From assembly GCF_032191835.1 (NCBI RefSeq), contig NC_083235.1, forward strand, positions 15,748,001 to 15,812,000: a stretch of DNA of 64,000 nucleotides, in the 5' to 3' direction. The notes beneath the pieces were generated by a model that had not been told where the DNA came from, ran no database searches, and saw nothing but the letters and a program-made list of their open reading frames with translations. Shown here piece by piece: positions 17,023 to 54,126 of the stretch (its first letter is position 1; the number at the start of each line of letters is the position of its first letter). A program made the position numbers and the translations under genes. The stretch is from Heteronotia binoei (Eukaryota).

Positions 17023-20000
17023 ATGCCAGTTAACTATAAGGTTTTATCTTGGAATTGCAGAGGCTTCAAAAATCCAATAAAACAAAAAAGAATTTCGAAT
17101 CTAATTAAAAAGGAAAGACTAAATATCATTTGTCTTCAGGAGACGCTTGTTAAAAAGGTGAAAACTCAGCTATTAAAATCAAATTGGATATCGCAGTCCT
17201 ATTATGCTACAGGCTCCTCCAAAGCTAGGGGGGTGGCGGTCCTATTTTCCAAAACTACTGTTTTCAAGTGTTTAAATACTAAAATTGATCCTAATGGTAG
17301 GTATATTTTTGTAGCAGGAAAGTTGGATGGCCATTTGATAACAGTAGCATCAATATATGCTCCCAATGCAGACCAGATCCAATTTTTACAGTCAACTTTG
17401 AATGATTTGCAGTCTTTCCAAACAGGTGAACTTATCATTGGCTGTGACTTAAACTGCATAATTAACCCTAATCTTGATAAATCTTTTAAAACAAGGAAAG
17501 AGTCTAGGCATAGTCAAATGACGGAACTGGGGAAACTTCTGACTACTTTTAACATCACTGATGTCTGGAGGGAATTTAATCCAGGGACCCGGGAGTATAC
17601 TTATTATTCTCACCTTCATGACACCTACACCAGAATCGATTTCATTTTAGCTTCAACTTCTTTTGTCAAAAATATGGTCTCTATTGATATAGGGTCTAGG
17701 ACTATATCAGACCATTCTTGGATTACAAGTTCATTTAGTTTGTCTCCTGAAAGGGGGGAGAAACCTTCATGGATGCTGAATAAATTTTTATTGTGTAGTG
17801 AGTCAGTCTGCACAGTAATTGAGAAAAACAGAAAAGAATATTTTTTATTTAACTCTGACTGTGGTGCTTCCCAGGAGAATGTGTGGGAGGCCTTTAAGGC
17901 CACATTAAGAGGCAGTCTGATCTCTCTTTCTTCGGCTTGTAAGAAAGAGAAAAATAAGAAACAATTACAGTTGCAATTGGAAATACAAAGCTTAGAAAAA
18001 AAAACATATGAAGCAGGGAGGTAAACGTACTTTGAAGAAACTGAATAATGCTCGTTCTAAATTGGAATTATTGGAGACTGATTCAATTCAGAAGGATATT
18101 ATATATGCTAAGCAAAGATTTATAACTAAAACTCCAAAATTTTTGAAACTATTAAAATACAGAATACAGAAAAAGAAAGCTAATACCTTGATTTATTCTA
18201 TTAAAAATCAGCAAAACAAGTCAGTCATTTCTTCTAAAGACATAGCGGAGGTATTCGTGAACTATTATAAACAACTCTACTCTACAACAAATCCCAAACC
18301 CCAAGACATAAGACAGTATTTAGACTCCATTAATTTTAATAGAAAACTGTCCTCAGACCATCTGGGGCTGCTTGAGAAGCCAGTCACAGTTCCAGAATTA
18401 GAAAAAATTCTTTCTTTAATTAAAAATAATAAGGCCCCAGGAAGGGATGGATACCCAGTAGAATTCTATAAGAAGTTTAAAACAAGTCTGCTTCAGCCCT
18501 TAGTTAACATCTGTAATCATGTAATGGAATCTGGTAAGGTACCCCCTTCCTGGTTGGAAGCACGTATGGTAGTCATTCATAAATCTGGTAGAGATAAAGA
18601 ATACCCAACTTCATGCCGACCGATTTCGGTACTCAACCACGACTTCAAGGTTTTTTCAACACTACTAGCAAGTCGTCTGAGTGCCATAATAGATCAGTAT
18701 GTGCATATGGATCAAACAGGGTTTATTCCGGGCCGATCGTTATCTGACAATGTAAGGAAAACCTTAAATCTCATCACGTATTGTAGCGCTAAAAAAGTAC
18801 CTTCAGTTATATTGTCACTGGATGCGGATAAAGCATTTGACAGAGTGGAACCAGTTTATTTGCAAACTCTATTAAAGGTGATGGATTTTGGCCCTAAATT
18901 TTTAAGGTCTATAGCTGCAATATATTCAAAACCAACTGCAAGCATTAGCTTGAATGGCTATCTTTCAAAAGACTTCCCTCTTTATAGAGGAACCAGACAG
19001 GGTTGCCCCCTCTCTCCTTATTTATTTGCTTTATCTTTGGAACCTCTTTCCTATGTTATTCGTTCAGACACTGAAATTCATGGTGTAGAAGTCAATAAAA
19101 CAGTTTATAAAGCAAGTTATTTTGCAGACGATGCAGTATTTTATCTATCTCAGCCGATCTCTTCTTTGACTAACGTCATGAAAGAAATTGATAAATTTAG
19201 CACATATTCAGGGTTTGTAATCAATTACAATAAGTCAGAGTTATATCCCATTTATCTTGAAGATAAAGGGGACAATACTAGGGACAATATTTCTAAATCT
19301 TTCCCATTCAAATGGGTAAAAGAGAAATGGTGACATCTGGGAATACTTATCCCTACTAACCTTCAAAAATTATTTAGCTGCAACTTCAACCCCTTAATAG
19401 AAGAAATGCATTCCACTATTATAGACTGGGCCAAACTTTCTTTTTCCTTGATGGAAAAAATTGATCTGATTAAATCCTTTCTGTTTCCTAAATTCCTTTT
19501 TAGATTTCAAAATATTCCAATATGGATCCCTGGGACCTTTTTTAAAAAATGGCAGAAATTAATTCTCTCATTCCTATGGAATGGGAAAAAAGCAAGGATA
19601 TCCACACAACTACTAACTAGACCTACTAAAAGAGGTGGTTTAGGCCTTCCAGATCTTTATACATATTATATATCAGCTAACCTTCGGCATATAGTGTCTT
19701 ATGCCAGCCCTACCCAGCAGATATCTTGGACCCAAATTGAACAGTCCTCTCTTGCCCATCCCTTTTTAAATGAAGTCCTTTGGAATGATAAAAAAGATAG
19801 GAGATGGCAGGAGGTACATAACCCGTATTTGAAATTTACCTTAGAACTGTGGGATAAAGTAAGAGGCCAGTTGGCCCCTCCAACCTCTCCAATGATGGCA
19901 TTTCTGGGGCAAACCTGGTTTGTCCCAGGAAAAGCCTCTTTAACTTTTGGGGAGTGGAGAAAAAAGGGCTTATATAGGTTAAATGACCTAGCAATTGCAG

Positions 20001-20872: not shown

Positions 20873-22867
20873 TTGATTGATCTATGCTTCTTTTTTGTAA
20901 AACCAAACTTTGATATAACTTTTGTATAAGCGTTATTTAAGTTCTTGTTTGTAACTTTTTTTTAACAATAAAATTGAATTAAAAAAAAAAAGGGGTAAAT
21001 TCTCTGAGATGAGGAGGCATGTGAAGAGGAAACTGAAAGGAAAGGTAAATACAGTCAAAACCCTTGGGAAAGCTTGAAGGCTATTTAAAACTACAATCCT
21101 AGAAGCTCAGATAAAATATATACCACAAGTTAGGAAAGGCACAAACAGGTATAAGAGAAGGCCTGCATGGTTAACAAACAAAGTAATGGAAGTTGTAAAA
21201 GGTAAGAAGGACTCCTTTAAACTGTGGAAAGCTAGTCCAACTAAGATTAATAAAAGGGAACACAGGCTGTGGCAAATCAAATGCAAGACTGTGAGCAGGC
21301 AGGCAAAAAGGGACTATGAGGAGCATATTGCAAAAAACATAAAGACCAACAATAAAAATGTCTTCAAATATATTAGAAGCAGGAAACTAGCCAGGGAGGC
21401 AGTGGGGCCCTTGGATGACCAGGGGGTAAAAGGATTACTGAAGGAGGATAGGGAAATGGCTGAGAAGCTGAATGCATTTTTTTTTGCCTTCGTCTTCACT
21501 GTGGAAGTGCCCACTCCAGAACCACTAATTTTGGAAGGGGTGTTGAAAGACCTGGGTCAGATTGAGGTGACAAGAGAGGAGGTCCTACAACTGATAGACG
21601 AATTAAAAACTAATAAGTCACCAGGTCCGGATGGCATACATCCAAGAGTTCTGAAAGAACTCAAAGTTGAACTTGTGGATCTTCTGACAAAAATATGTAA
21701 TCCTTTATTGAAATCTGCCTCCGTTCCTGAGGACTGGAAGGTAGCAAATGTCACCCTCATCTTTAAAAAGGGTTCCAGAGGAGATCCGGGAAATTACAGG
21801 CCAGTCAGTCCAACTTCAATACTGGGAAAGTTGGTAGAAACCATTATCAAGGTCAGAATGAGTAGTCACATTGATGAACACAAGTTATTCAGGAAGATTC
21901 AGCATGGGTTCTGTAAGGGAAGATCTTGCCTCACTAACCTCACTTACAGTTCTTTGAGGGGGTGAACAAACATGTGGACAAAGGGGACCCAACAGATATT
22001 GTTTACCTTGACTTCCAGAAAGCTTTTGATAAAGTTTCTCATCAAAGGCTCCTTAGTAAGCTCGAGAGTCATGGAGTAAAAGGACAGGTTCTCTTGTGGA
22101 TCAAAAACTGGCTAATTAATAGGAAGCAAAGAGTGAGTATTAATGGGCAGTCTTCGCAGTGGAGGACGGTAAGCAGTGGGGTGCCACAGGGCTCAGTACT
22201 AGGTCCTATGCTCTTTAACTTGTTCATTAATGATATGGAGTTGGGAGTAAGCAGTGAAGTTGCCAAGTTTGCAGATGACACTAAATTGTTCAGGGTGGTG
22301 AGAACCAGAGAGGATTGTGAGGCACTCCAAAGGGATCTGTTGAGGCTGGGTGAGTGGGTGCCAACGTGGCAGATGAAGTTCAATGTGGCCAAGTGCAAAG
22401 TAATGCACATTGGGGCCAAGAATCCCAGCTACAAACACAAGTTGATGGGGTGTGAACTGGCACAGACTGACCAAGAGAGAGATCTTGGGGTTGTGGTAGA
22501 TAACTCACTGAAAATGTCAAGACAATCTGCGATTGTAATAAAAAAGGCCAACGCCATGCTGGGAATTATTAGGAAGGGAATTGAAAACAAATCAGCCAGT
22601 ATCTTAATGCCCCTGTATAAATCGATGGTGCGGTCTCATTTGGAGTACTGTTTGCAATTCTGGTCACCGCACCTCAAAAAGGATATTATAGCATTGGAAA
22701 AAGTCCAGGGCAACTATGAAGAAAGGTTAAAACACTTGGGGCTCTTTAGCTTGGAGAAACGTCGACTGCGGGGTGACATGATAGAGGTTTACAAGATTAT
22801 GCATGGGATGGAGAAAGTAGAGAAAGAAGTACTTTTCTCCCTTTCTCTCAATACAAGAACTCGTGGG

Positions 22868-25800
22868 TACATGAGCCTGTACGAGAGCCGGGGCCCGGAC
22901 TTGACCAGTGTCAAGGGATTCCTACAGGCGATGCTACTCCAGTATGAAGACCCCTTGTAAGAGACTCGGGCCGTCACCGTGCTACGTGACATGCAGCAGG
23001 GATCGAGATCAGTGAGGGAATATACAGCTAACTTCAGGGCCCACTGCGCCAAGGTCCGGGGCTGGAACAAGATGATGAAGATCGAGGTGTATCAGCAGGG
23101 CCTCAACGCTAGCCTCTTGGACCGGGCCTTTCATCAAGCCCGCCCCACCACGCTGGTGGGGTGGATGCAGTTGGCCGGAGAAGTCGAAACCAACATGAAG
23201 CGCATAGCACTGCAACGACAACAGCAGCAAAGGGGAAAGGGGGGACGTGAGACTCGGTCAGGCCCCAAAACCGAAGCAAAGAAAGCGCCAGCCCTGGGGG
23301 GAACCCCTAAAACCACTACAAGTTGAAAGTGTTTCAGATGTGGAGACCCGGGGCACCTGTTAGTGAACTGCCTGGAGAAACCTCAAACCCCCCCCCCCCG
23401 TAACCCGAAGCCGACGGCAGCGGGACCCAAGAAGATGCCGGGGAAGTCCAAAGAGCCTAGTTGGGGCAGCACCGCAACATCGATAGTGCTTGACGATACT
23501 ATAATTGTAGATGACCTGAGCGAGGAGTCGTGGGAGCCCGAGCTGGCGGGAAACGGGAGCGACCTGCACTGATCGGTGCCGGGAGGCAGGTCGTGGATCT
23601 AACGGCACCATTACGGGTGAGAATAACTGGGGCCCTGTTTTTCGTCCCTTTGACTTTATTGAACCCAAAGCTCAAACGGTTCATGCACGCCAGAGCCTTA
23701 ATCGACTCTGGGTGCACGAGGCAAATTATAACCCCAAAGCTGGTGGATGCCATTGGACTGTCTCGAGCTCCCTTGCCCCATCCAATCCAGTTCGAACAGA
23801 TGGATGGGTCCGTGATGAGAGGGGAGCCGTGTGTGGAAGAGACTCAGGGCTTGCCGGTGGGGATAGACGAACATTGGGAGGTGGAAGTCTTTGTGATTGC
23901 CCCCTCGTTGTCCTTCGATGTAGTGTTGGGGATGGGCTGGCTAGCCAGGCACCAGCTGGACATACAGTGGGGAGCACAGACCATAGACTTTACCGATAGA
24001 CGGTGTATGCACCACCTCTGGCTAGAGAAATGGGGGCCAAGCCCACCCCCGAAAAACGAAAAGATGTGTGTGTCAGTAGAGGAGGTCCGATTGATCCCCA
24101 GGGAGTACCGGGACTTGAGGAAAGTGTTTAGCGAGGAGGAAGCCAATGAACTACCACCCCACCTCAGCACCGACTGCGCCATCGAGCTGATCCCGGGCCA
24201 AGAACTCCCAAAGGTTAAACTGTACTCCATGGGGTGGGCAGAGAAAACGGAATTACGGAAGTTTATCGATAAAAACTTAAAACAGGAGTTTATCAGACCA
24301 GCCACCGCACCTCACGCTGCCCCCGTCCTCTTCTGGAAGAAGAAGGATGGGAGCCTGAGGCTTTGCACGGACTTTCACGGGATAAATGGGATTTCAATGT
24401 CCAACGCCTACCCCATCCCCCTCATCAAAGACTTATTAAGTACAGTGTCTGAGGGGTCCATATTCACCAAGTTGGACCGGAGGGACGCTTACTTCCGAGT
24501 AAGAATCAAAGAGGGGGACAAGTGAAAGACGGCGTTTAATACACTCATGGGGCAGTTTGAATATTTGGTGATGCCCTTTGGACTCCAAGGGGCCCTGGGA
24601 GTGTTCATGAACTTTATCAATGAAGTGCTGAGAGAGTACTGTATAAGGGGGTGGTGGTGTACCTGGATGACATTATCTACTCGAAAGATCTACCCTCCCA
24701 CGTGCAGCTGGTGAGGAAAGTGCTCTCCACCCTATACGAACACAAGCTATACGCGAAGCTGTCCAAGTGCGAGTTTCATCAGACGGAACTTGATTACCTG
24801 GGGTTCCGAGTCTCCGGGAAGGGGTTAGCAATGGACCTGGCCAAGATACAAGCGGTGCTGGATTGGGAACCCCCGAGGACACGTAGACAGTTACAATCCT
24901 TCCTCAGGTTCGCCAATTTCTACAGGGGGTTCATTCAGGGGTTCGCCCAGGTGATGTTACCCCTAACAGACTTGCTCAAAACGAAAGGGAAGGAGCTGGA
25001 TGCAAAAAAACCCAGGGCCAGGCTCCGTTGGTTGCCAGAATGCCAAAGAGCTTTTGATAAACTCTTTGTGGTCTAGTGTGACGCCTCTGATGTAGCTGTC
25101 GGGGCAATATTAATGCAGAGGGATGAGGAGGGAAGGTTGAAACCCTGTGCCTATATTTCTAGAAAATTTTTGCAGGAACAGCGTAACTGGTCGGTCTGGG
25201 ACAAAGAGGCGTTTGCTGTAACTTTTGCTCTAAAGACCTGGCAATCCTGGCTAGAGGGGGCGAGGGTCCCATTCGAAATCTGGACCAACCATAAAAACCT
25301 AGAGGCACTTACAGGCCGCCAAAAGCTAACTGCAAAGCAAATTCGATGGGCCGGCTTCTTTGCCAAGTTCGACTTTACTCTCAAGCACATACCAGGATCA
25401 AAAAATTTCTTAGCCGATGCATTGTCTCGTCTTCCCCAGTATGAAAGCCAGAGGGAGGAAGTCATAGACTCCATCATTCCCCCCTCCGCAGTGGTGGAGG
25501 CCGTAACCACTCGATCAGGAAAAAGAATGAAACCTCCAGAGCCATGGGGTGGTGGTGGTAATAGACTGATCGAGGAGACCAAGGGGGAGGGGACGCACAG
25601 GTCGGAAGGAATTGTGAAGGGAGACGGGTTTTTTTGGTACTATGAAGGGAAGCTGTATGTGCCCCAAACCCTCCGCCATGAGGTTTTACAGCATTGCCAC
25701 TGCAGCAAGCTGGCCAGCCACTTTGGTTACGTGAAAACACTACACTTAGTCAACAGGCAGTTTTGGTGGCCACACATGAAAAAGGACATCTCGGAATTTG

Positions 25801-37585: not shown

Positions 37586-39981
37586 TAATCATAGGCCAAA
37601 CTATTGGATTAAACGTTTTTAAAAAAACTATTTGCCTTGGGAGCACAGAAACTTTACACAGTGTCCCTGATCCATACTGGCTGGGGCTGATGGAAGTTGT
37701 AGGCAAAAAACATCTGGAGAGCTACGATTGGCCATCCCTGCTCTATGGCATTAGTCCCCTGCACACTGAGGCCTCTCCCCTCCCCACATCCCACCCTTCT
37801 CAGGCTTCACACCTCAAAAATCTCTAGGCATTTCCCAACCTAGAGCCGGGAACCCAAACTGCTAGCCCCTGTCTTCAGCCAGCTCTTCTTCTGTCTTCTA
37901 ACATCTTCATTATCTCCTCTTTTGCTCCACAGTCACTTTTCTGTAGCCAGCCATGTGGACTTGTGGTTGGAGTCTTAGACTAGGATGTGGAAGACTCGGC
38001 TTCAAATCCTCTTAGGGTTGTCAATTCCCAAGAGGGGGCAGGAGATCTCCCGGTTAGGAGGGCCTCCCCCCGCTCCAGGGTCATCAGAAAACGGAGGTGG
38101 GGGAATGTCTGCTGGATACTCCATTATTCCCTATGGAGACCGATTCCCATAGGGTATAATGGATAATTGATCTGCAGGTATCTGGACTCTGAGGGTGCTT
38201 TTTTTTAAGGTAAAGGCACCATAGCATCTGGTGCCTCTCTTCAAAACACCCTCTAAGTTTCAAAAAGATGGACCAGGGAGTCCAATGCTATGAGCTCCAA
38301 ATGAAGGTGCCCCTATCCTTCATTATTTCCAATGAAGGGAAGGCATTTAAAAGGCGTGTGGTCCCTTTCAATGTGATGGCCAGAACTCCCTTTGGAGTTC
38401 AATTATGCTTGCCACACCCTTAATCCTGGCTCCACCCCTAATGTCTCCTGGCTCCACCCCCAAATTCCCCAGATATTTCTTGAATTGGACCTGGCATCTC
38501 TAAATCCTCTCCCTCCCATGGAAGTTCGCTGGGTCACCTCTCTCTTTGTGAGTCTAACCTATTTCACAGGTTATTGTGATGAGGAGAGCAATGTTGTAGG
38601 CCTCTTTGAATCCCTAGTTCAGAGAAAACAGGTATAAATCACTGAATAAATCCATTCTCTGTGACCAGGCTCTTAGCCAATGAACACTTTCCATGACTCA
38701 GGCCACAAACTCCTTGGTTCTTATCAGCTGTGAGCTAGTTGCACACTCATTGGTGGCCCGTTCACATATCTCTGTCATTTCTCCTTCATTCATGTCATTC
38801 TTGCTATACAAAATTCCTTGAAGGAAACCAAGATAAAAAGGCATTAATTGCATACAAACACAGAGACACAAAAAACAACTCTAAAGAAGCAAGGAGATAA
38901 TTATGCAATTATAGTTTTATCAAGCAATTCCCAGGATACTTGAGAGGTCTTCATCAGGGGAATTTATTTTGCTGTTAGATGCCCGATTGAACCACCTGCT
39001 TATATACCACATGTAGAAGATGAATTCCTGAGATACCTAATCTTTTTCCTCTTGATTTGCTTGTGTGTGAAAGTTGCTTTAATGTGGCCATCAACTAGGG
39101 ATTCCATGTCCAATTCAAGAAATATTTGGGGTCTTTGGGGGTGGAGCCAGGAAACTTTGGGGTGCAGCCAGGAGATATTGGGGTTGAGCCAGGACCAAGG
39201 TTGTGTCAAGCATAATTGAACTTCAAAGGGAGTTCTGGCCATCACATTTCAAGGGTCCGCACACCCTTTCAATGCCTTCCCTCCATTGGAAATAATGAAG
39301 GATAGGGGCACCTTCTTTTGGGAGTCATAGAATTGGACCCCCTGGTCCAATCTTTTTTAAACTTGGAGGATGTTTTGGAGAGAGGCCCTGGATGCTATGC
39401 TGAAAATGTGGTGCCTCTGCCTCAAAAAACAGTTCCTCCAAGAGCTCCAGATACCCATGTATCAATTATCCATTATACCCTATGGAAATTGGTTTCCATA
39501 GGGAATAATGGAGTGCCTAGCAGACATTTCCCTCCCCCCCCCCCCGATTTCTGAATTCCCTGAAGTGGGGGGAGGGCCTCCAAACTGGGGGATCCCCTGT
39601 CAGCATATGCTTGCTAGTAAGACTTCAGGCTGGAGTCTAATACACATGATCTATGACAGCTCATGATCTGTGACAGTTCCTGACAGCTTCACTTAGCAGG
39701 TGCAATCTGGTTCTGTCCAGGGTACTTGTGCCTATGCAGAATGACTCAGCACTATGTGCTGATTGGTGCTTGTATATAGCTATATGTATATAACTGGGAA
39801 GAGTCTATGCAGTGTATCTCTGCTCTTAAATGTGTTGTCTGGCGAAGCACTTTGTTTCAGTGTATACCAGGACAACTATAACTTGTATATCTGTAAGTAA
39901 ATGTAAATAGTTAGCACAAGTCAGTGTGCTGTCTATTCTTCAGCCTTACAAACCCAGAGCATACCAGTGAATATGCCAACA

Positions 39982-40013
39982 GGGTTATGGGCCCAGCACG
40001 CTTCTGCTGCGCC
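39982..40013 (+). promoter_or_regulatory. Copia primer-binding site complementary to the 5' half of tRNA-iMet
   Basis: GGGTTATGGGCCCAGCACGCTTCTGCTGCGCC directly after the LTR end; 31/32 match to the reverse complement of vertebrate tRNA-iMet nt 9-40 (sequence recalled, not looked up). Confidence 0.88.
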
Positions 40014-40754
40014 GTGCTCTGGTGGTTCTGAAGGAGACTGAACTGCTGAGGTGACCTGTGACTGAGTGGAAGTCTGCAGCTGCCACTTCTGGAGCTGAGG
40101 AGGAAGACGTGCTCAGCCAGGCTCCTGATAACAGCACGGAGGACGGGAGTGTGTCTGAGGACCAGCTGCCAGACAGAGATGACAGCATGGCTCAGGTACC
40201 AACTGCTGTGCTGGTGGAGAAGCTCACTTCTACTAATTAATAATGTGTGGGTTCTTCACATGGAACATTATCTGAAATGTGAAGGTCTGTGGTTGTATGT
40301 CGATGCTCCCCCAGACCCTTCAGCTGCTGGAGACGACGTCAAGGACAAGAAAGCTCTTGTGACCATTGTTTTGAGTGTGGCAGATGACCAGCTCGTGCAC
40401 GTATCTGGTAAGCCGAAGGATAAACAAGCGTGGAACAGTCTGAAGGCTGTGTATGTGCAAAGCACAGCTGGGTCTCTGATAGCAATTACCCGTCGCATGT
40501 ACCGGACTGTAATGAGTCAGAGGGAGTCTGTGAGGGCTCACTTAAACATTTTGGCTGAATGCTTCCAGCAACTGGAGCAGCGCAGAAAAACTGTTCCAGA
40601 GGAGGATAAAGTGTTTATCATTCTAAGTTCCCTGTCAGTGGATTACAATATGTTGATAACTTCACTGGAATCTACAGAAGCGAACAAATTAACCTTGACT
40701 TACGTTACTGGATGCCTGCTGGAAGAGGAGAACAAGGAAACAAAAAGCACCACG

Positions 40755-41857
40755 TGAACCAGCTTTTATATCCAATTACATAACAAGAAAAACCATTCAA
40801 ATATAAATAATTGTATTTAACCCACATATATTGCTTTTATCAAAACAACCATAATACTCAGACCTTTGAACAAAAGGAAGCATTTACCCCAAGAGTTCTT
40901 TTCCTTTATATGGTAAAATTGTCCAGCTTTTCCATGTAATCCTGGTGTGATATTCCAAATGATGAATGTCTCTCAATGGTTGCAGCCAAATTTTCAAAGA
41001 GGAAAGGGACAAGGTTGTACTAATACCCTTGTTTCGCAAAAGCTTTTTCAAGCTATAAAAGACCTCTTAGCAGAGACTTCTTCAAGCTGCAATAAACCTC
41101 TTGGTAGAGAGCATATTCAAGCTGTAATAGACATCTTAGCAAAGAGCTTCTTCAAGCTGCAATACACCTGAATAATATGATAAAAAGCATACAAAAATTC
41201 AATAATGCACTTAACCTGTTGCACATAAGCCATAAAACATTTAAAACACTGAATAAAAAACAGCATACATCTTAGCAAATTGTTAGAGCAAAGGCAATCA
41301 TAGCCCAAATGTTTTCTAACTGAACACCCAAAGGTGCTGAAAGGAATACAACTTAATGGCTTATATGCATCAGGTGCAACAATTCACAATGTTCCTTAAA
41401 GACACAGTATAACCTGCTACAGCAATATCCAAAATATAGTCTCAAAAAGAAATTAAACCACATACATCTGACTATAATTATAAAAAACATGCCAAGTCCC
41501 AATCATTATTGAGACCATGAGGAGATAGAGTCCTTAATTTAAAGATCATACGCATTTCATGTTGGTGTAACCATTTGCTGCAATCCATCGTACCCTGCAA
41601 TCTTGTTGGAAATTTCAAAAGTACACAAAAACGCAATGAATCTGGTTCATGATTATACTGAATGAAATGCTCTACCAAAGGAGCATCTACCACACGATGC
41701 TTCAATCTAGATTTATGTTCTAACACACGTGTACGAATGGCACGTGTAGTTGACCCCAAATAAATTTTTTTACATGGACACAGAATCACATAAATACATC
41801 TCTGTGTAGCACAAGTGGTGATATCCTTTAGATATATTTTGTATCCTGTTTCCGGAT
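40755..41857 (-). mobile_element. Penelope-like element 3' part (GIY-YIG endonuclease and pLTR) nested in the Copia
   Basis: Minus-strand ITTCATQRCIYVILCPCKKIYLGSTTR..RVLEHK..LVEHF..HGLN; hammerhead-like repeats at 41001-41165. Confidence 0.85.
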
Positions 41858-43884
41858 CATTTTGATTTCACAACAGCTTATTTAAACGCACGAATAGATG
41901 AACAGCTCTACATGGAGCAAATCCCAGGGTTTGAAAGTACTAATAAGAACCTTGTCTTGAAACTTAACAAAGCCCTGTATGGCTTAAAACAGAGTGCCAG
42001 AGCATGGAATCAATGTCTGAGCAAAGCCTTGACTGACCTTGGGTTCACACAGGGAATTGCTGACCCGTGTACGTTTAACAAAACCATTGGGAAAACTAAA
42101 TGCTATCTGGTTGTTTTTGTAGATGATTTATGTTTTCTGTTTCATGAGGATATGCAGCTGCAATGGTTTATAAAAACAACTCAACGCTTATTTAAAATTA
42201 AACATTTGGACAGCATTCAGCATTACTTGGGTGTAGACATTACAAAGAATACAAATGGATGTTTTGAGCTCAGTCAGGAGCATAAAATAACAAAGCTGCT
42301 TGAAGAATACAACATGACTAATGCAAACTGCATTACTACACCAATGACCACGAGCTATGGAAAAGAGCCTGATGACAAAGTGTTTGAACACAAGGCATTG
42401 TATCAATCACTAATTGGGTCCCTACTGTATATAGCATGTCGGTCTAGACCAGATATCTGCATTACAGTTCACATGTTGTGTCAAAAGTGTGCATGTCCTT
42501 TTATGAAAGATTGGACTGCTGCAAAAAGGGTATTGAGGTATCTAAAAGGTACTGCTGCAAACAAATTGGTGCTAGACGCTACCTCAGCACAACAAGTAAC
42601 AGCTTACAGTGATTCTAGCTGGGGAGATAGAAAAGATGGAAGGTCCACAACAGGCTATGCTGTGTATGTGCATGAAGCTCTTGTAATGTGGAATTTTGAA
42701 ACAACCACACATCTCAACTGGCACTTGTGAAGCAGAGTATTCTGCATTAAGTGATTGTGTTGTTCAGCTGGAATGGTTATATCAACTATTAACAGACCTG
42801 AACATGCAATGTAACCCACCGATGTGTGTATTTTGTGACAATACTGCTGCTCAACAGTTGGCAAATGCACAGGGTGTCAAAATAAGAAGTACACATTAGC
42901 ATTCGTTATCAGAATGTCAGGGAGACTGTACATAGAGGCTTAATTATGTTACGGTACTGTTCTTCTGATGTAAATGTAGCAGACATGTTCACAAAGTGTT
43001 TGAATGTGGAGAAATTTGTATTTCTGAAACAAAGGCTGGGACTCACTGCCTGAGGGGGAGTGTTAGCATATGCTTGCTAGTAAGACTTCAGGCTGGAGTC
43101 TAATGCACATGATCTATGACAGGTCATGATCTGTGACAGTTCCTGACAGCTTCACTTAGCAGGTGCAAACTGGTTCTGTCTAGAGTACTTGTGCCTATGC
43201 AGAATGACTCAGCACTGTGTGCTGATTGGTGCTTGTATATAGGTATATGTATATAGCTAGGAAGAGTCTATGCAGTGTATCTCTGCTCTCAAATGTGTTG
43301 TCTGGCGAAGCACTTTGTTCTAGTGTATACCAGGACAACTGTAACTTGTATATCTGTAAATAAATGTAAACAGTTAGCACAAGTCAGTGTGCTGTCTATT
43401 CTTCAGCCTCACAAACCCAGAGCATACCAGCGAATACGCCGACATCCCCTGCCCCTACCTGGGGATTTGTGCAACAAGGGTGAGTCCCACGGATACAAAT
43501 GACTGGGAGAGAAAGCAGCACTTTGGTGTTAAAAGTCTACAGACTGTTTCTTAAAGATATGCACACTTACAATGATTGAAAAACTTAGAATAATTATTTC
43601 TATCACATCACAATATATACTTCATACAAAACAAAACCAAAACAATGAGAAAGGGACAGTTCACAACCAATTTCAACAGATAAGTTCTTCCTTTCTTCTC
43701 AGTGAACATCCACAATCCATGCAGGTTGAACAACACACAGAATAGATTGAAGAATGTGACAGGCAGACAGACTTCAGACCGAAGGCAGATTCTCCAATGT
43801 GCAGTGTTATTTCCAAGGCTCTAACTCATAGCTAAACTAGTGGTCCTGGAATATTCTGACCTCATTTTCACCAGAGCCATATGA

Positions 43885-48142: not shown

Positions 48143-49746
48143 TTTATTTCTATCCCGCCCTCCCCACCTCAGCAGGCTCAGGGCGGCTAACAACATTTTA
48201 TAAAAACATACAATAATAATAATAAAACCTTTAAGTTTAACAATATAAAACATCAACAATAAACTTAATAACATTAAAAACCAGTTCAATAAATACAGTT
48301 ATTCTGCGGTATAGTTCTTCAACCGCGTTGGCGGCTCCTTAATTTCTGATCTTCCTAACAGTCCGGGTGTGCAAATTTGAAAAGGACGGTCTTGCAGGCC
48401 CTGCGGAACTGCTCAAGGTTCCGCAGGGCCCGCACCTCCTCGGGGAGTCGGTTCCACAGAGTAGGAGCCGCAATCGAGAATGCCCGTACTCTGGTGCTCT
48501 GATATTTTATCTCCTTCGGCCCGGGGATGGTCATTAGATTTTTCCCGACTGACCTCAGTGCTCTCTGGGGTTCGTATGGGGAAAGACGGTCCCTCAGGTA
48601 GGCAGGTCCTCGGCCATATAAGGCTTTAAAGGTAACGACCAACACTTTGTACTGGACTCGGTATACAATCGGCAGCCAGTGCAGTTCACGCAGCCCCGGC
48701 TGTATATGCTCCCGTTTTGGGAGCCCCAGCAACAGCCTGGCTGCCGCGTTCTGCACTAGCTGCAGTCTCCGAGTCCGGCACAGAGGTAGCCCCAAGTAGA
48801 GGGCATTACAGTAGTCTAATCTTGAGGTGACCGTTGCGTGGATCACTGTTGCGAGGTCCCGGCGCTCGAGGAAAGGGGCCAACTGCCTTGCCCGCTTCAG
48901 ATGGAAGAATGCTGACTTGGCAGTGGCTGCTATCTGGGCCTCCATTGATAGTGAAGGCTCCAGTAAAACACCCAGGCTCTTTACCTGGCGCGCTGCTTTC
49001 AATAGCGCACCATCGAAGGCCGAGAGAGCTATTTCCCTTCCCAGAGCGCCGCGACCCACGCAAAGGACCTCTGTCTTCGCTGGGTTCAGTTTCAGCCCAC
49101 TCAGCCTGAGCCATGTCGCAACAGCCTGTAAAGCCCGGTCGAGATTCCCTGGTGCGGAGTCGGGCCAGCCGTCCATTAGTAGATAGAGCTGGGTGTCATC
49201 TGCATATTGATGGCAACCCAGCCCAAACCGCCGGGCAATCTGGGCGAGGGGGCGCATATAGATGTTGAACAACATCGGGGAGAGAACTGCTCCCTGAGGC
49301 ACCCCGCAATCCAGTGTGCGCCTCCGGGACCGTTCCCCCCCAATAGCCACCCTCTGTCCCCGACCTAGGAGAAAGGAGGAAAGCCATTGCAAGGCCGACC
49401 CCTCAACCCCAATGTCGGCGAGGCGGCGCGTCAGTAGCCGATGGTCGACTGTATCGAATGCAGCCGACAGATCTAACAACATCAGCACCGCAACGCCGCC
49501 TCGGTCCAGTTGCCGTTGGAGGTCATCCACCAAGGCGACCAGCACCGTCTCCGTGATTATGCAAAACATATTGTGGAGGCCAGGAAAAGATTCAAATTAG
49601 CGAAGGACATGGCCCGTCAGTTGCGACTGGAATATTATCTGGGCTTCCCAGCAGTCCTATCAATCACACATGCAGAAGAGACTAGGCGCTTCTCCAGTCC
49701 TAGAAAAGCAGAAAAGTACCTGCAACAGATTAAGGACCAGTCTTAA
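47471..49746 (+). pseudogene. L1-b ORF1 interrupted by an antisense L2 insertion
   Basis: ATG 47471, coiled coil, RRRSLKVLG; resumes DYAKHIVEARKRF..LGFPAVL after 49555. Confidence 0.85.
48077..49555 (-). mobile_element. L2-clade LINE, 5'-truncated, open RT C-terminal frame, (TTA)n tail
   Basis: LLDLSAAFDTVDH, GVPQGAVLSP, YADDTQLY, RLDYCN, LVQNAAAR, LHWLP, RAFS; tail at about 48077-48141. Confidence 0.9.
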
Positions 49747-50367
49747 CATGTCCTTAGTCTAACTAATGAGAATATTAATTCATTTATTAATCTATTAATT
49801 ATTTGAGTTTCTGAGTCTCTAGGGATTTGTTATTAAGTGTAAAAACTGTTATATGTATATATATGTGGAGGGCAAATGAATTAAATTAATTAAGCATTTA
49901 AGTTGCCGGTTGGGTAAAAGAAAATGGGTATTTATGAAAGCAGATTTCTAATTTAAAATGGAGTGTGGCGGATCTAGTAGCGGGGAAATATATATATATA
50001 TGGTGTGAACTGTTTTTCTGTGTATGAGTTGGGCAGCAAAAAACCAGCTAAACAGCTGGAGGTTTTATAGATACTTCTCTAAGGGGGTAGGGAGTGGCAG
50101 AGATCCCGGAAGCACCCCATATAATCGGAAGTCCTTGGGAGTATCACAGGGGTGGGTCAGGGGTGGGGGGGAAAAACACACATGTATTAAACAAAATGAA
50201 ATTGATAGGCTTAAACACTATATGGTTAGCTTTAAGTTCTAGAAATGGACAGAAACAAGAAAGAAGGCACTCATCTAATATTATAATCTATGGTATATAC
50301 AAGATTAAGTTGAAAGTATTGTTTCTTTGTTTACATGTTTCATAATTAAGAATAAGGGTGATTTAAG

Positions 50368-53300
50368 ATGGTAAAGATTCTAACGGTTAATATACATGGC
50401 GCTAGGACTACAAAAAAGAGAATGTTGCTCTGGCAAACGTGTAAGTCCATGGGTGTAGGGATAATATTTATTCAAGAAACCCATACCTTAAGTTCGGAAT
50501 GTAGTTGGTTCTGTCAGGAGAAAGGAACTCAGGTTTTTTCCACCGATTATAATATTAATTCACGTGGTGTGGCAATTCTAATACGCAAGATTGCTAATGT
50601 GTCAGTTCAACAAGTCATCTCAGATCCAGAAGGAAGATATATTGTGTTGCATATTCATATGTATGGAAAAAAGGTTTTATTGATTTCAATATATGGTTCA
50701 AACCGTGATCAACCTGCTGTTCTTCATAAAATAGGAGAAAGTATCCAGAATATGGAGTGGGATGACATTGTTTTTGGTGGTGACTTCAACGTAACTATGG
50801 ACCCGCTTCTGGATAGGAGTGACGCTAATATAAATAGACTCCCACAAGTTAGAGCAGTGTTGGGTGGCTATATGAAGGATTTGAGGTTGACTGATATATG
50901 GAGATTGTTACATCCTACACTCAGGGAATACACATTTTATTCAAGGGTTCATAACCTGATGTCTAGACTTGATTTCTTCTTGTTATCTCCCGATTTAATT
51001 TCAAAGGTGAATACTTGCGAGATAATCCATTCAACAATCTCTGACCACAATATGGTCCTGTTAGATATTCACTTGGCTCTTCAAGAAAAACCAAAAACAG
51101 CTTGGTGCTTTAATGCTACTTTGTTAGCGGATGACACATTTGTATCACAAATGCGTAGAGAAATCAATGAGTTCTTTGAGATAAATGAAGGCTCGTCATC
51201 TTCTAGATCTATAGAATGGGAAGCATTTAAAGCAGTGATCCGTGGGAAAGTTATTGCCTATACTGCACATAAAAAAAGAACAAGCGAAGAGCGGCTTGTA
51301 TCTCTGGAGAATGAGTTAACTCAGGCTTGGACAATAATGTATCAAAGCCCAAATGTGCTATCCTATAAATTGATTCAAAATTTGAATTATCAAATTAATT
51401 TATTAAAATATCATACACTTGAGCAAATCATGTACAAATCTCGTCATCAGCACTGGGAGTCAGGTGATAGAATAGGAAGAATATTATCAAACAAATTAAA
51501 AAGGGAAAAAGCTGATAAAAAAATCATTGCGATTAAAAATAGACAGAATAAGATCTGCATAGATTCACAGGAGATTGTTAACTCTTTCTTTGAGTTCTAT
51601 CAACAATTATATAATATCCCACAGATAGCAGAAGAGTCACAAATATCTAGCTTTCTGAAATGGGTAGAACTAAGTAAATTAAATAGTGAACAAAAAGTGG
51701 ATCTTGCGCAAAAAATAACTAGTCTAGAGATTAAGGTCGCAATTGATTCTTTAAAACGCCGTACAGCCCCTGGCCCAGATGGTTTTATATCTGAATGGTA
51801 CCTTGAATTTCAGGATGTGCTGATTCCTAAGTTACATCAGTTATATAACTCTTGGTATCAAAATGACTCTATACCAGAAGTAATGAATGAGTCTTTGATA
51901 ATCGTGATCCCGAAACCCAATAAAGATCGGTTGGAATGTACTAGTTACAGACCAATTTCTCTAATTAATCTTGATATAAAAATCTTAGCAATAATTTTGG
52001 CTAATCGGGTTAAGAGAGTAGCGGGATCTTTGATACACAAAGACCAAACAGGATTTATGTACGGCAGAAATGGGCAAGACAATATCCGGTTGGCATTAGA
52101 CATAATTGATCTGCAAAGAGATTCTATGGAAAACTCAGCGCTAATCTCTTTGGATGCTGAAAAAGCGTTCGATTCAATCCATAAGAACTTTATTTTTTCG
52201 GTTTTATCACATTTGAATTTTCCTCAATCATTGATAAAATGGATTAAATTACTATATCATAATCCATCATCCCGATTAAAAATTAATGATAATTTATCAC
52301 CTCCTATTCGATTAAATCGCGGTGTGAGACAGGGGTGTCCTCTCTCACCTCTTATTTTCAATTTGTGTATTGAACCTTTAGCGGCAGCCATTAGAAAATC
52401 TAAGGACGTCATAGGGATTAAATTTAAGAGTTTGGAATATAAACTTGCTTTATACGCAGATGATCTATTGCTGTTTGTGTCGAACCCTGAGCATTCTATC
52501 CCAGCTGTAATGACAATAATTGACAATTTCGGCAAGTTAGCTGGGTATAAAATAAACTGGTCTAAATCTGAGCTGATGCCATTAGGGCGTGGAAGTTTAG
52601 ATTATAGCTCTTTCCAGTTAGCAGTTACAACAGGGCAGGTGAAATATTTAGGCCTTTTTTTGCCCAACGATCTATCGCAGCTAGTTAAGATTAATTTAGA
52701 TAGGGTATTAACCAATATAACGACAGATCTAGAAAGGTGGAAGGGCTTGACCCTGTCATTATGGGGGAAAATTAATACTTTAAAAATGTGCATATTTCCA
52801 AAATTAATTTATATTTTGAGAGGCATTCCTATTCTAATCCCTAAGAAATGGTTCAATAAAATCGATGGGATCTTATCTAAGTTTATTTGGGGCTCCAGTC
52901 GACCTAAGATCTCTATGCTTAAGCTTCAGAGAGAGGTGAAGGAAGGTGGTTTTAAGGTTCCGAACCTGTTATTATATCACAGAGCCCTTTTATTAGCTGC
53001 AGTTAAATGGTGGAATCTTGGCAGCTTGGATAACGCACCGACCTGGGCATCGCTTGAGGGCGCAATGATATTTCCATTGGAGGGATGCTATGCACTAGGT
53101 TCGACGTTCTCTGTGATAAAACATCCACTGAGATCAATTACTTCAGCTAGAAAAGTATGGGAGCTGACACTGAAACTGGTTAACGCTGACCCTTTCTCGC
53201 ATGAAAAAGCCTCTTTGTGGGGCAATCCTTTAATTAAGATAGGCAATAAGCCGGTTTTTTGGCTTCGGTGGATGCACGCCGGTATTGTTTCTTTGGATCA

Positions 53301-54126
53301 GTTAAAAAATCAAGAGGATGAGTTTATTGCACACTATGAACTTCCAACTCAAATAACATCTTTACCATTATATCAGTGGAATTTTATGCAAATGAAACAA
53401 GCCTTGCGAACTGTGTTCGAGCCTGATGCGTTGGCGGCATCACAGTGCCCGCCATTGTTTGGTCAACTGTCTGAGGCATTTGAGCAGAAGAAATCCAATT
53501 TAGTGTTGTATAATATACTGAAGGAGATTACAATACCCGACCTATCTGCACTAAATCAAAAATGGAATCTAGAGGTTCAATGTCACGTGAACTTGGACCA
53601 ATGGGAAGATTGTTGTAATAAAATTAGGAAGTCCACTCTGGACATCAGGTTGATAACTATACAACAGAAAGTATTGCATAGAGTTTATTGGACCCCACTT
53701 CGTATGTTTAAGAGAGCAATGCTATCCTCAGCAGAGTGTTGGAGATGTAAGAGTAGAGAGGCGAATCTCACACATATGCTATTTAATTGTGAGGTGATTC
53801 AGAATTTTTGGCAACAGGTGTTATTGAAAATAAAGGATACAATTAAACGTCAACTACCATGGCAAGATAGTCACTTAATACTAAACTTTTTTCCGAAAGA
53901 ATGGAAATTAAAGAAGGGGCAAAAATTATGGTTAGGAAGGGCTCTGTTGATAGCAAAACGCCAAATTCTTAAACACTGGAAACAAAATGATGTAATTCCA
54001 ATTCTTCTTTGGGAAGATGACTTATTGAAACTTGCAGCTTTTGAAAAAATATCGTTTTCTGGTCGTAGACAAATGTGTCGTTTTAATGAGATTTGGAGTC
54101 CATTTATGCAAATGATGAATGTTTAG
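50368..54126 (+). CDS. L1-b ORF2p, intact 1252 aa (APE endonuclease, reverse transcriptase, CCHC)
   Basis: TVNIHG, QETH, GGDFN, SRLDFF, SDH; RQGCPLSP, YADD; CWRC..HMLFNC. Confidence 0.95.
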   Translation: MVKILTVNIHGARTTKKRMLLWQTCKSMGVGIIFIQETHTLSSECSWFCQEKGTQVFSTDYNINSRGVAILIRKIANVSVQQVISDPEGRYIVLHIHMYGKKVLLISIYGSNRDQPAVLHKIGESIQNMEWDDIVFGGDFNVTMDPLLDRSDANINRLPQVRAVLGGYMKDLRLTDIWRLLHPTLREYTFYSRVHNLMSRLDFFLLSPDLISKVNTCEIIHSTISDHNMVLLDIHLALQEKPKTAWCFNATLLADDTFVSQMRREINEFFEINEGSSSSRSIEWEAFKAVIRGKVIAYTAHKKRTSEERLVSLENELTQAWTIMYQSPNVLSYKLIQNLNYQINLLKYHTLEQIMYKSRHQHWESGDRIGRILSNKLKREKADKKIIAIKNRQNKICIDSQEIVNSFFEFYQQLYNIPQIAEESQISSFLKWVELSKLNSEQKVDLAQKITSLEIKVAIDSLKRRTAPGPDGFISEWYLEFQDVLIPKLHQLYNSWYQNDSIPEVMNESLIIVIPKPNKDRLECTSYRPISLINLDIKILAIILANRVKRVAGSLIHKDQTGFMYGRNGQDNIRLALDIIDLQRDSMENSALISLDAEKAFDSIHKNFIFSVLSHLNFPQSLIKWIKLLYHNPSSRLKINDNLSPPIRLNRGVRQGCPLSPLIFNLCIEPLAAAIRKSKDVIGIKFKSLEYKLALYADDLLLFVSNPEHSIPAVMTIIDNFGKLAGYKINWSKSELMPLGRGSLDYSSFQLAVTTGQVKYLGLFLPNDLSQLVKINLDRVLTNITTDLERWKGLTLSLWGKINTLKMCIFPKLIYILRGIPILIPKKWFNKIDGILSKFIWGSSRPKISMLKLQREVKEGGFKVPNLLLYHRALLLAAVKWWNLGSLDNAPTWASLEGAMIFPLEGCYALGSTFSVIKHPLRSITSARKVWELTLKLVNADPFSHEKASLWGNPLIKIGNKPVFWLRWMHAGIVSLDQLKNQEDEFIAHYELPTQITSLPLYQWNFMQMKQALRTVFEPDALAASQCPPLFGQLSEAFEQKKSNLVLYNILKEITIPDLSALNQKWNLEVQCHVNLDQWEDCCNKIRKSTLDIRLITIQQKVLHRVYWTPLRMFKRAMLSSAECWRCKSREANLTHMLFNCEVIQNFWQQVLLKIKDTIKRQLPWQDSHLILNFFPKEWKLKKGQKLWLGRALLIAKRQILKHWKQNDVIPILLWEDDLLKLAAFEKISFSGRRQMCRFNEIWSPFMQMMNV

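Follow-up and report, generated by a model that had tools for sequence, protein, structure and literature searches.

The 64-kb window analysed here (the whole stretch of DNA, at its full length) contains a decayed copy of a Copia retrotransposon from a clade whose primer-binding site (PBS), at 31-32 nt, is complementary to the initiator tRNA (tRNA-iMet) from nt 40 back to nt 10 or 9. We judge it probable that elements of this clade are primed by a cut, melted tRNA-iMet 5' half, and that reverse transcriptase (RT) likely copies this primer into the site up to nt 10 or 9, at which point the modified base m1G9 would stop it. By sequence comparison within one genome, the long site is a trait of a single Copia clade, with all multi-copy families ending their match at nt 10 or 9. 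The evidence for copying of the primer comes from a young sister family, in which tRNA letters recur in part of the insertions, and selection for long pairing appears to act alongside it.

Positions 39982-40013 adjoin the terminal CA of a 384-nt 5' LTR (coordinates checked in the 64-kb window). The parts of the element, with the evidence on which each assignment is based, are as follows.

39593..39597, + strand: left target-site duplication, 5 bp (the same five bases recur at 43445-43449).
39598..39981, + strand: 5' LTR, TG...CA (94.8% identity to the 3' LTR over 384 nt).
39954..39961, + strand: U5 arm, which could pair with 40015-40022 (predicted fold of the window RNA, and family comparison).
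39982..40013, + strand: 32-nt PBS against tRNA-iMet nt 40 to 9, with one mismatch, attributed to CpG decay, at 40005 (comparison with host genes L061-L064; family spectrum).
40015..40022, + strand: leader arm, predicted to pair with the U5 arm or, through 40016-40021, with nt 8-3 of the tRNA beyond a 2-nt bulge (folds predicted both in the presence and in the absence of the primer).
40062..40757, + strand: copia-type gag frame, 3' end missing (PF14223, E 1e-25; 50% identity to sister-family Gag at 40245-40736).
40751..41830, no strand assigned: about 1.1 kb foreign to the family, replacing protease and integrase (family copies no longer match beyond about 40730).
41858..43051, + strand: RT and RNase H region, with frame changes (PF07727, E 1.6e-38; three pieces match the sister polyprotein).
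43052..43060, + strand: polypurine tract (purine run immediately 5' of the 3' LTR).
43061..43444, + strand: 3' LTR (alignment of the LTR pair).
43445..43449, + strand: right target-site duplication (copy of 39593..39597).

The two LTRs, PBS, polypurine tract and target-site duplication by which Ty1/copia elements (Pseudoviridae) are recognized are all present in the window copy, together with copia-type Gag (PF14223) and RT (PF07727); the order integrase before RT was found in a sister-family copy, the window copy itself being without protease and integrase, and no homology to either was detected inside the window element. The insert at 40751-41830 is AT-rich, contains 35-nt repeats at 41047-41185, is unrelated to the family and has no match among the other loci collected for comparison. 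Elsewhere the window is part of an olfactory-receptor cluster, with four receptor frames (PF13853; 4083-5087, 29572-30570, 36587-37585 and 57701-58765); these receptors mark the host as a vertebrate, perhaps a lizard to judge by its repeats. Other frames comprise a 1254-aa LINE with endonuclease and RT (50362-54126), three RVT_1 frames (17996-19333, 21938-22960 and 48355-49596) and one retroviral-type protease (23515-24525).

The host tRNA reference was obtained with a pattern that excludes LTR ends, which returned five places, all tRNA-Met(CAT) by ARAGORN, including four identical 72-nt genes (L061-L064); we use gene numbering, in which the anticodon is at position 33 and nt 40 and 25 correspond to standard 41 and 26. 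Against these genes the claim made from the window sequence, that a long PBS follows the 5' LTR directly, holds: 31 of 32 positions match tRNA-iMet nt 40 to 9 (standard 41 to 9). The site faces the tRNA's anticodon stem-loop, not its 3' end. The chance of 16 of 17 extra matches past the usual 15-nt core is about 3e-9; the PBSs of Drosophila copia and of Ty5 are about 13-15 nt. The sole mismatch, at site position 24 (40005), had been taken for a G:U wobble, a reading that the family does not bear out: the tRNA-type C is found there in 19 of 31 family copies and T in 12, and decay is likewise seen at its remaining CpGs, a spectrum from which we conclude that the mismatch is a CpG transition that followed insertion. 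Downstream, the sequence-only reading had proposed pairing with nt 8-1 after a 2-nt bulge; pairing is indeed predicted, but over 6 bp (nt 8-3) and not 8, with an energy (-9.0 kcal/mol) within the range of control stretches. The proposed 8-bp stem between U5 (39954-39961) and the leader (40015-40022) is present in the sequence: of 31 family copies, 23 retain all 8 pairs and 8 retain 7, and none shows a compensatory change. Position 33 is A in 10 of the 31 window-family copies; we rejected this as a trace of copying to nt 8, as it is inseparable from CpG decay (5 with T at position 32; p 0.30).

The site is found far beyond the window. Its three-G core, placed after CA, occurs at at least 1257 places genome-wide (a pattern that misses some copies), and a two-G core at 27; at 95 of the first 100 three-G places listed, which were chosen by the 15-nt core only, the distal block is present in register (counted by eye). 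Clustering of 112 loci by their flanks gave five multi-copy families (42, 31, 19, 10 and 4 copies sampled) and six single copies, from pattern samples that are biased toward matches in positions 1-15 or 1-22 (L030, which has no core, was left out). The long site is common to all five families and to the single copy L231, and the match is lost at position 32-33: it extends to nt 9 in four families and to nt 10 in the young family and L231, and the bases that follow vary by family. The expectation that complementarity would end at nt 9-10 throughout was thus correct for all five multi-copy families. Flank identity among six representatives is 42-72%, with many pairs near the level of unrelated sequence. 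The six long-site rows group together as a single clade (SH-aLRT 97) when RT sequences are placed on a tree of 48 rows, and this clade is sister to a short-site clade (99). Two single copies that fall inside the clade on the Gag tree (L227 and L229) match over 15 nt in register only, and may be decayed or truly short.

In the protein search no relative exceeded about 33% identity over most of its length, and the proteins compared included no named copia, 1731, Ty5 or Osser reference. When metagenomes were scanned with the core, 30 loci were returned; an LTR-type long site was seen in none of them, and the long metagenome matches (L235 and L261; weaker, L251 and L253) look like tRNA genes, as does one viral-contig hit. 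One further locus of the genome (L068, or L307; G000:C2:176360235-176360281, minus strand) has CA and then a stretch that matches tRNA-iMet from nt 39 to 1 in decayed form, with the tRNA 3' half absent; it has no LTR pair, no pol and no relative among 20 loci, and is therefore not counted as Copia (retroposition of a tRNA half, or capture of the full primer, could account for it).

The short-site sister clade of the same genome (L096-L152) serves as a control. It shares with the window clade the host and the tRNA, and is its sister on the RT tree (RT 36-41% identical to that of the window), but differs at the site: all 35 located copies have a 2-nt spacer and then only about 15 nt facing nt 39-25. 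No member of the long-site clade was found in a sample chosen by RT (0 of 60, taken from 150 rows as every second of the first 119), and 35 of the sampled copies had the short site. Because this sister clade has kept about 15 nt in a host that it shares with the long clade, the host tRNA and its modification alone do not force a long site; because that clade never lengthened, the origin of the long site would take one capture event in the ancestor of the long clade. The short site also varies, between tRNA-type and G:U-type letters at positions 5 and 15, with the G:U-type letter at position 5 in 6 of 35 copies and the tRNA letter in a close relative, L152. The short-site clade is young, many of its LTR pairs being 99-100% identical.

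Evidence that the site is rewritten from the tRNA comes from the young family (L153-L212), whose RT is 52% identical to that of the window; the site of the window family is perfect apart from decay and is uninformative on this point. At positions 16, 17 and 20, a common non-tRNA variant is carried by 33 of 60 young copies and 15 are fully tRNA-type, the remainder being tRNA-type at position 20 only (5), at 17 and 20 (1) or other (6); position 32, which faces G9, is non-tRNA in 60 of 60. When the site is left out of the tree, six or more well-supported branches have tRNA-type copies adjoining variant sisters, the tRNA-type state needs 13 changes (the mode for shuffled labels is 14), and a single clade of tRNA-type copies is rejected (p-AU 1e-5). 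One burst of 43 copies, with about 2 private changes in each, includes 8 that are tRNA-type throughout; mutation cannot supply such a triple change.

The same pattern is seen on a genome-wide basis. In the 2.63-Gb assembly the young-family pattern has 780 matches, and partial changes among them are polar, with 86 distal-only copies (tRNA-type at position 20, not 16) and 1 proximal-only. Within the burst subfamily, 112 of about 619 copies are fully tRNA-type at positions 16-20 (a count made with a slightly different pattern from that for position 32), and position 32 is G in 617, A in 2 and the tRNA-type C in 0 of 619. The burst is mosaic for shared variants, and recombination is therefore active in it. 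Inheritance of tRNA letters is seen to position 20 (nt 21), across G26; positions 21-31 hold no inherited variant in the copies, and the end of copying may fall anywhere between nt 21 and nt 10, the modification pattern considered being that of human tRNA-iMet. These counts suggest that copying of the primer likely extends beyond nt 21 but does not pass through nt 9; alternatively, the absent tRNA-type letter at position 32 could reflect an unextended mismatched 3' end. Misincorporation opposite G26 was rejected as the source of the partial states: the letters are those of the parent (69 and 15 of 86), and RT does not see m2G (PMC7293042). RNA-library contigs of three organisms contain the young family, with no tRNA-type letter listed at positions 16, 17 and 20 in contigs that break there in two runs and a table that omits some differences. 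In the young burst, copies of about 3.7 kb with no RT match are in the majority, fewer being 4.8 kb; the shorter copies are likely non-autonomous derivatives.

The variant occupies most branches despite steady reversion, and must therefore be favoured; a U5 hairpin and escape from silencing are the candidate reasons. The middle of the variant site is able to form base pairs within the last 12 nt of U5, over 8 bp in L198 and over 4-6 bp in its relatives; this pairing is lost in tRNA-type copies, and such a predicted hairpin is a possible reason for the persistence of the variant. Silencing of tRNA-type copies by methylation, tried as an explanation, was unsupported (CpG changes among private changes, 0 of 15 in tRNA-type and 8 of 75 in variant copies; p 0.34, a comparison of low power).

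In the mechanism that we favour, the half-tRNA would pair across its anticodon and D arms, and plus-strand strong-stop DNA would continue through the primer to nt 10 or 9. The plus strand would then anneal to the minus-strand site via the distal block, forming a heteroduplex from which part of the new insertions would gain tRNA letters. Repair would strip the tRNA-copied strand from the 5' LTR side, sometimes halting between mismatches, and is the likely source of the polar partial changes; the observed polarity of 86 to 1 fits repair from the unjoined 5' LTR end, whereas 3'-end trimming predicts the opposite. The long site itself may have arisen once, through capture of a long primer copy in the ancestor of the clade, and would now be maintained by re-templating together with selection for pairing. 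As the point at which RT stops, m1G9 fits by analogy with other reports: m1G mainly causes RT stops (PMC5066629), and PMC7293042 gives human tRNA-iMet as carrying m1G9, m2G10, partial m2G26 and t6A37, with no m2,2G26, and m2G as undetected by RT. Standing against this account are the four families that match through nt 9, the presumed blocking base, the two single copies of the clade with 15 nt in register (L227 and L229), the mosaic burst, the origin of the re-templating evidence in a sister family and not in that of the window, and L068, a locus of unclear nature that matches to nt 1. The earlier proposal, that copying of the primer to m1G9 fixes a doubled PBS, is retained in part: the recurrence of tRNA letters in the young sister family favours it, but the sister clade stays at about 15 nt, the end of the match varies between nt 10 and nt 9, and a box in U5 indicates that selection contributes too.

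That box is complementary to tRNA-iMet nt 1-9; its position is -24/-25 both in the young family, where 19 of 19 copies match at 8-9 of 9 bases, and in L231, and it resembles a primer activation signal. Boxes of 8-9 bases are found at family-specific distances of -24 to -59 (L153-L212, L231, L070, L088, L091, L075, L092, L066 and L073/L076/L083-L085). Among the two-G loci, 11 of 27 have a match of at least 8 of 9 within 60 nt upstream, compared with 0.7% per shuffled sequence (several of these loci are relatives), and duplex energies of -12 or below occur in 15 of 49 U5 stretches versus 3 of 49 control stretches; Copia pol was found in 5 of 20 two-G loci examined at length. In pairing terms the box would need a free acceptor strand, which suits a cut or opened tRNA. 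Because the box is complementary to nt 1-9, selection for long pairing also acts, and the length and end of the site could be set by selection for the initiation complex and not by an RT stop, primer copying merely refreshing what selection keeps. Here the site would melt the anticodon and D arms, with nt 1-9 either remaining in the acceptor stem (of an intact tRNA, cut after annealing) or pairing with the U5 box. We consider this explanation unlikely overall, albeit one with real evidence behind it: the box, seen in the young family, L231 and the two-G loci and by duplex energy, cannot be refreshed in place by primer copying; a mismatched variant present on most branches despite reversion requires selection; and additional pairing between tRNA and template is described for Ty1, Ty3 and retroviruses (PMC5371799). 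Yet the window family and three other 32-nt families end at the same place with no U5 box (p 0.18-0.5), and at positions 21-31, CpG decay aside, fixed changes of the G:U-tolerated kind are seen in none of the families, although selection alone would be expected to allow them.

A reading in which the tRNA is not copied at all, with tRNA-type and variant sites being two old alleles shuffled by recombination of co-packaged genomes and the long site merely conserved, seems to us quite improbable. The mosaic of shared variants in the burst shows that recombination does occur, and the Ty1 and Ty3 sites are not inherited from the tRNA (PMC5371799 and PMC7472051); but on six or more well-supported branches both states stand beside differing leader types at a distance of only 7-20 nt, the tRNA-type state is followed by no marker, and the polar copies would need crossovers within 3 nt in 86 of 780 cases, in one direction only. 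That the match is a tRNA pseudogene fragment or a chance resemblance beside an LTR, with no role in priming, we regard as having a negligible probability: tRNA-derived pieces do exist in the genome (L065, perhaps L068), but in every family the match begins immediately next to the LTR, with no base between, it recurs at least 1257 times, and it is kept although flanks diverge to 42-72% identity, which refutes this reading.

Priming by a half-tRNA from about nt 40 defines Hemivirus-type elements (PMC1181622, PMC10886601 and PMC6317226), which by the ICTV description use a short tRNA segment (PMC8515867), a description that the long clade, at 31-32 nt, falls outside. The window clade resembles Drosophila copia, 1731, yeast Ty5 and Volvox Osser in having a site against the tRNA-iMet anticodon stem-loop, a predicted primer end at about nt 40 and, in sister copies, Ty1/copia domain order; it differs in the length of the site, in a start one base further 3', in the evidence of tRNA inheritance and, in some families, in the U5 box for nt 1-9. 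Mouse ETn, MusD and IAP elements likewise have a common mismatched PBS and a perfect PBS scattered over the tree, read as primer copying (PMC7472051), but use the tRNA 3' end, whereas the window clade is Ty1/copia, with an internal 3' end, a site of almost double the length and a polar gradient that can be measured. Yeast Ty1 and Ty3 are also primed by tRNA-iMet and pair beyond the core site with other tRNA arms (PMC5371799); their primer is full-length and their site is not inherited from the tRNA (PMC5371799 and PMC7472051), whereas the young family points to inheritance. The young family accordingly departs from the strict Ty1/Ty3 type, in which the PBS never comes from the tRNA, and it is in this sister family only that the retrovirus-like replacement of element letters by tRNA letters in part of the new insertions was found. 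Judged by its sites, the window clade, known from one genome and not placed against named hemiviruses, works like Hemivirus-type priming combined with retrovirus-like inheritance of the site. We did not find a 30-nt half-tRNA site, or primer inheritance, described for a Copia in the literature covered, which consisted mostly of open-access papers, and Repbase/Dfam consensus entries may already include such sites.

Little is known of the making, holding and inheritance of half-tRNA primers, and in Ty1, the model element, the site is not inherited from the tRNA. For primer inheritance in a Copia, about 780 young insertions give the rate (about 18% fully and 11-14% partly tRNA-type), the direction (86 to 1) and the outer limit (never nt 9). 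Three points become testable: where on the tRNA half RT stops, whether cutting of the primer precedes or follows its annealing, and why the mismatched site is favoured. For annotation, tools that seek 3'-end or 15-nt sites misread long-site elements. A bolder form of the account holds that the clade engages the whole tRNA-iMet 5' half and rewrites its site in each cycle up to m1G9, one family keeping a mismatched site because copies with a perfect site are dead ends; we put this forward tentatively, as conceivable but doubtful. If it were true, hundreds of young insertions would document, within the genome, both the stop at a tRNA modification and the way in which the host repairs the primer-site heteroduplex.
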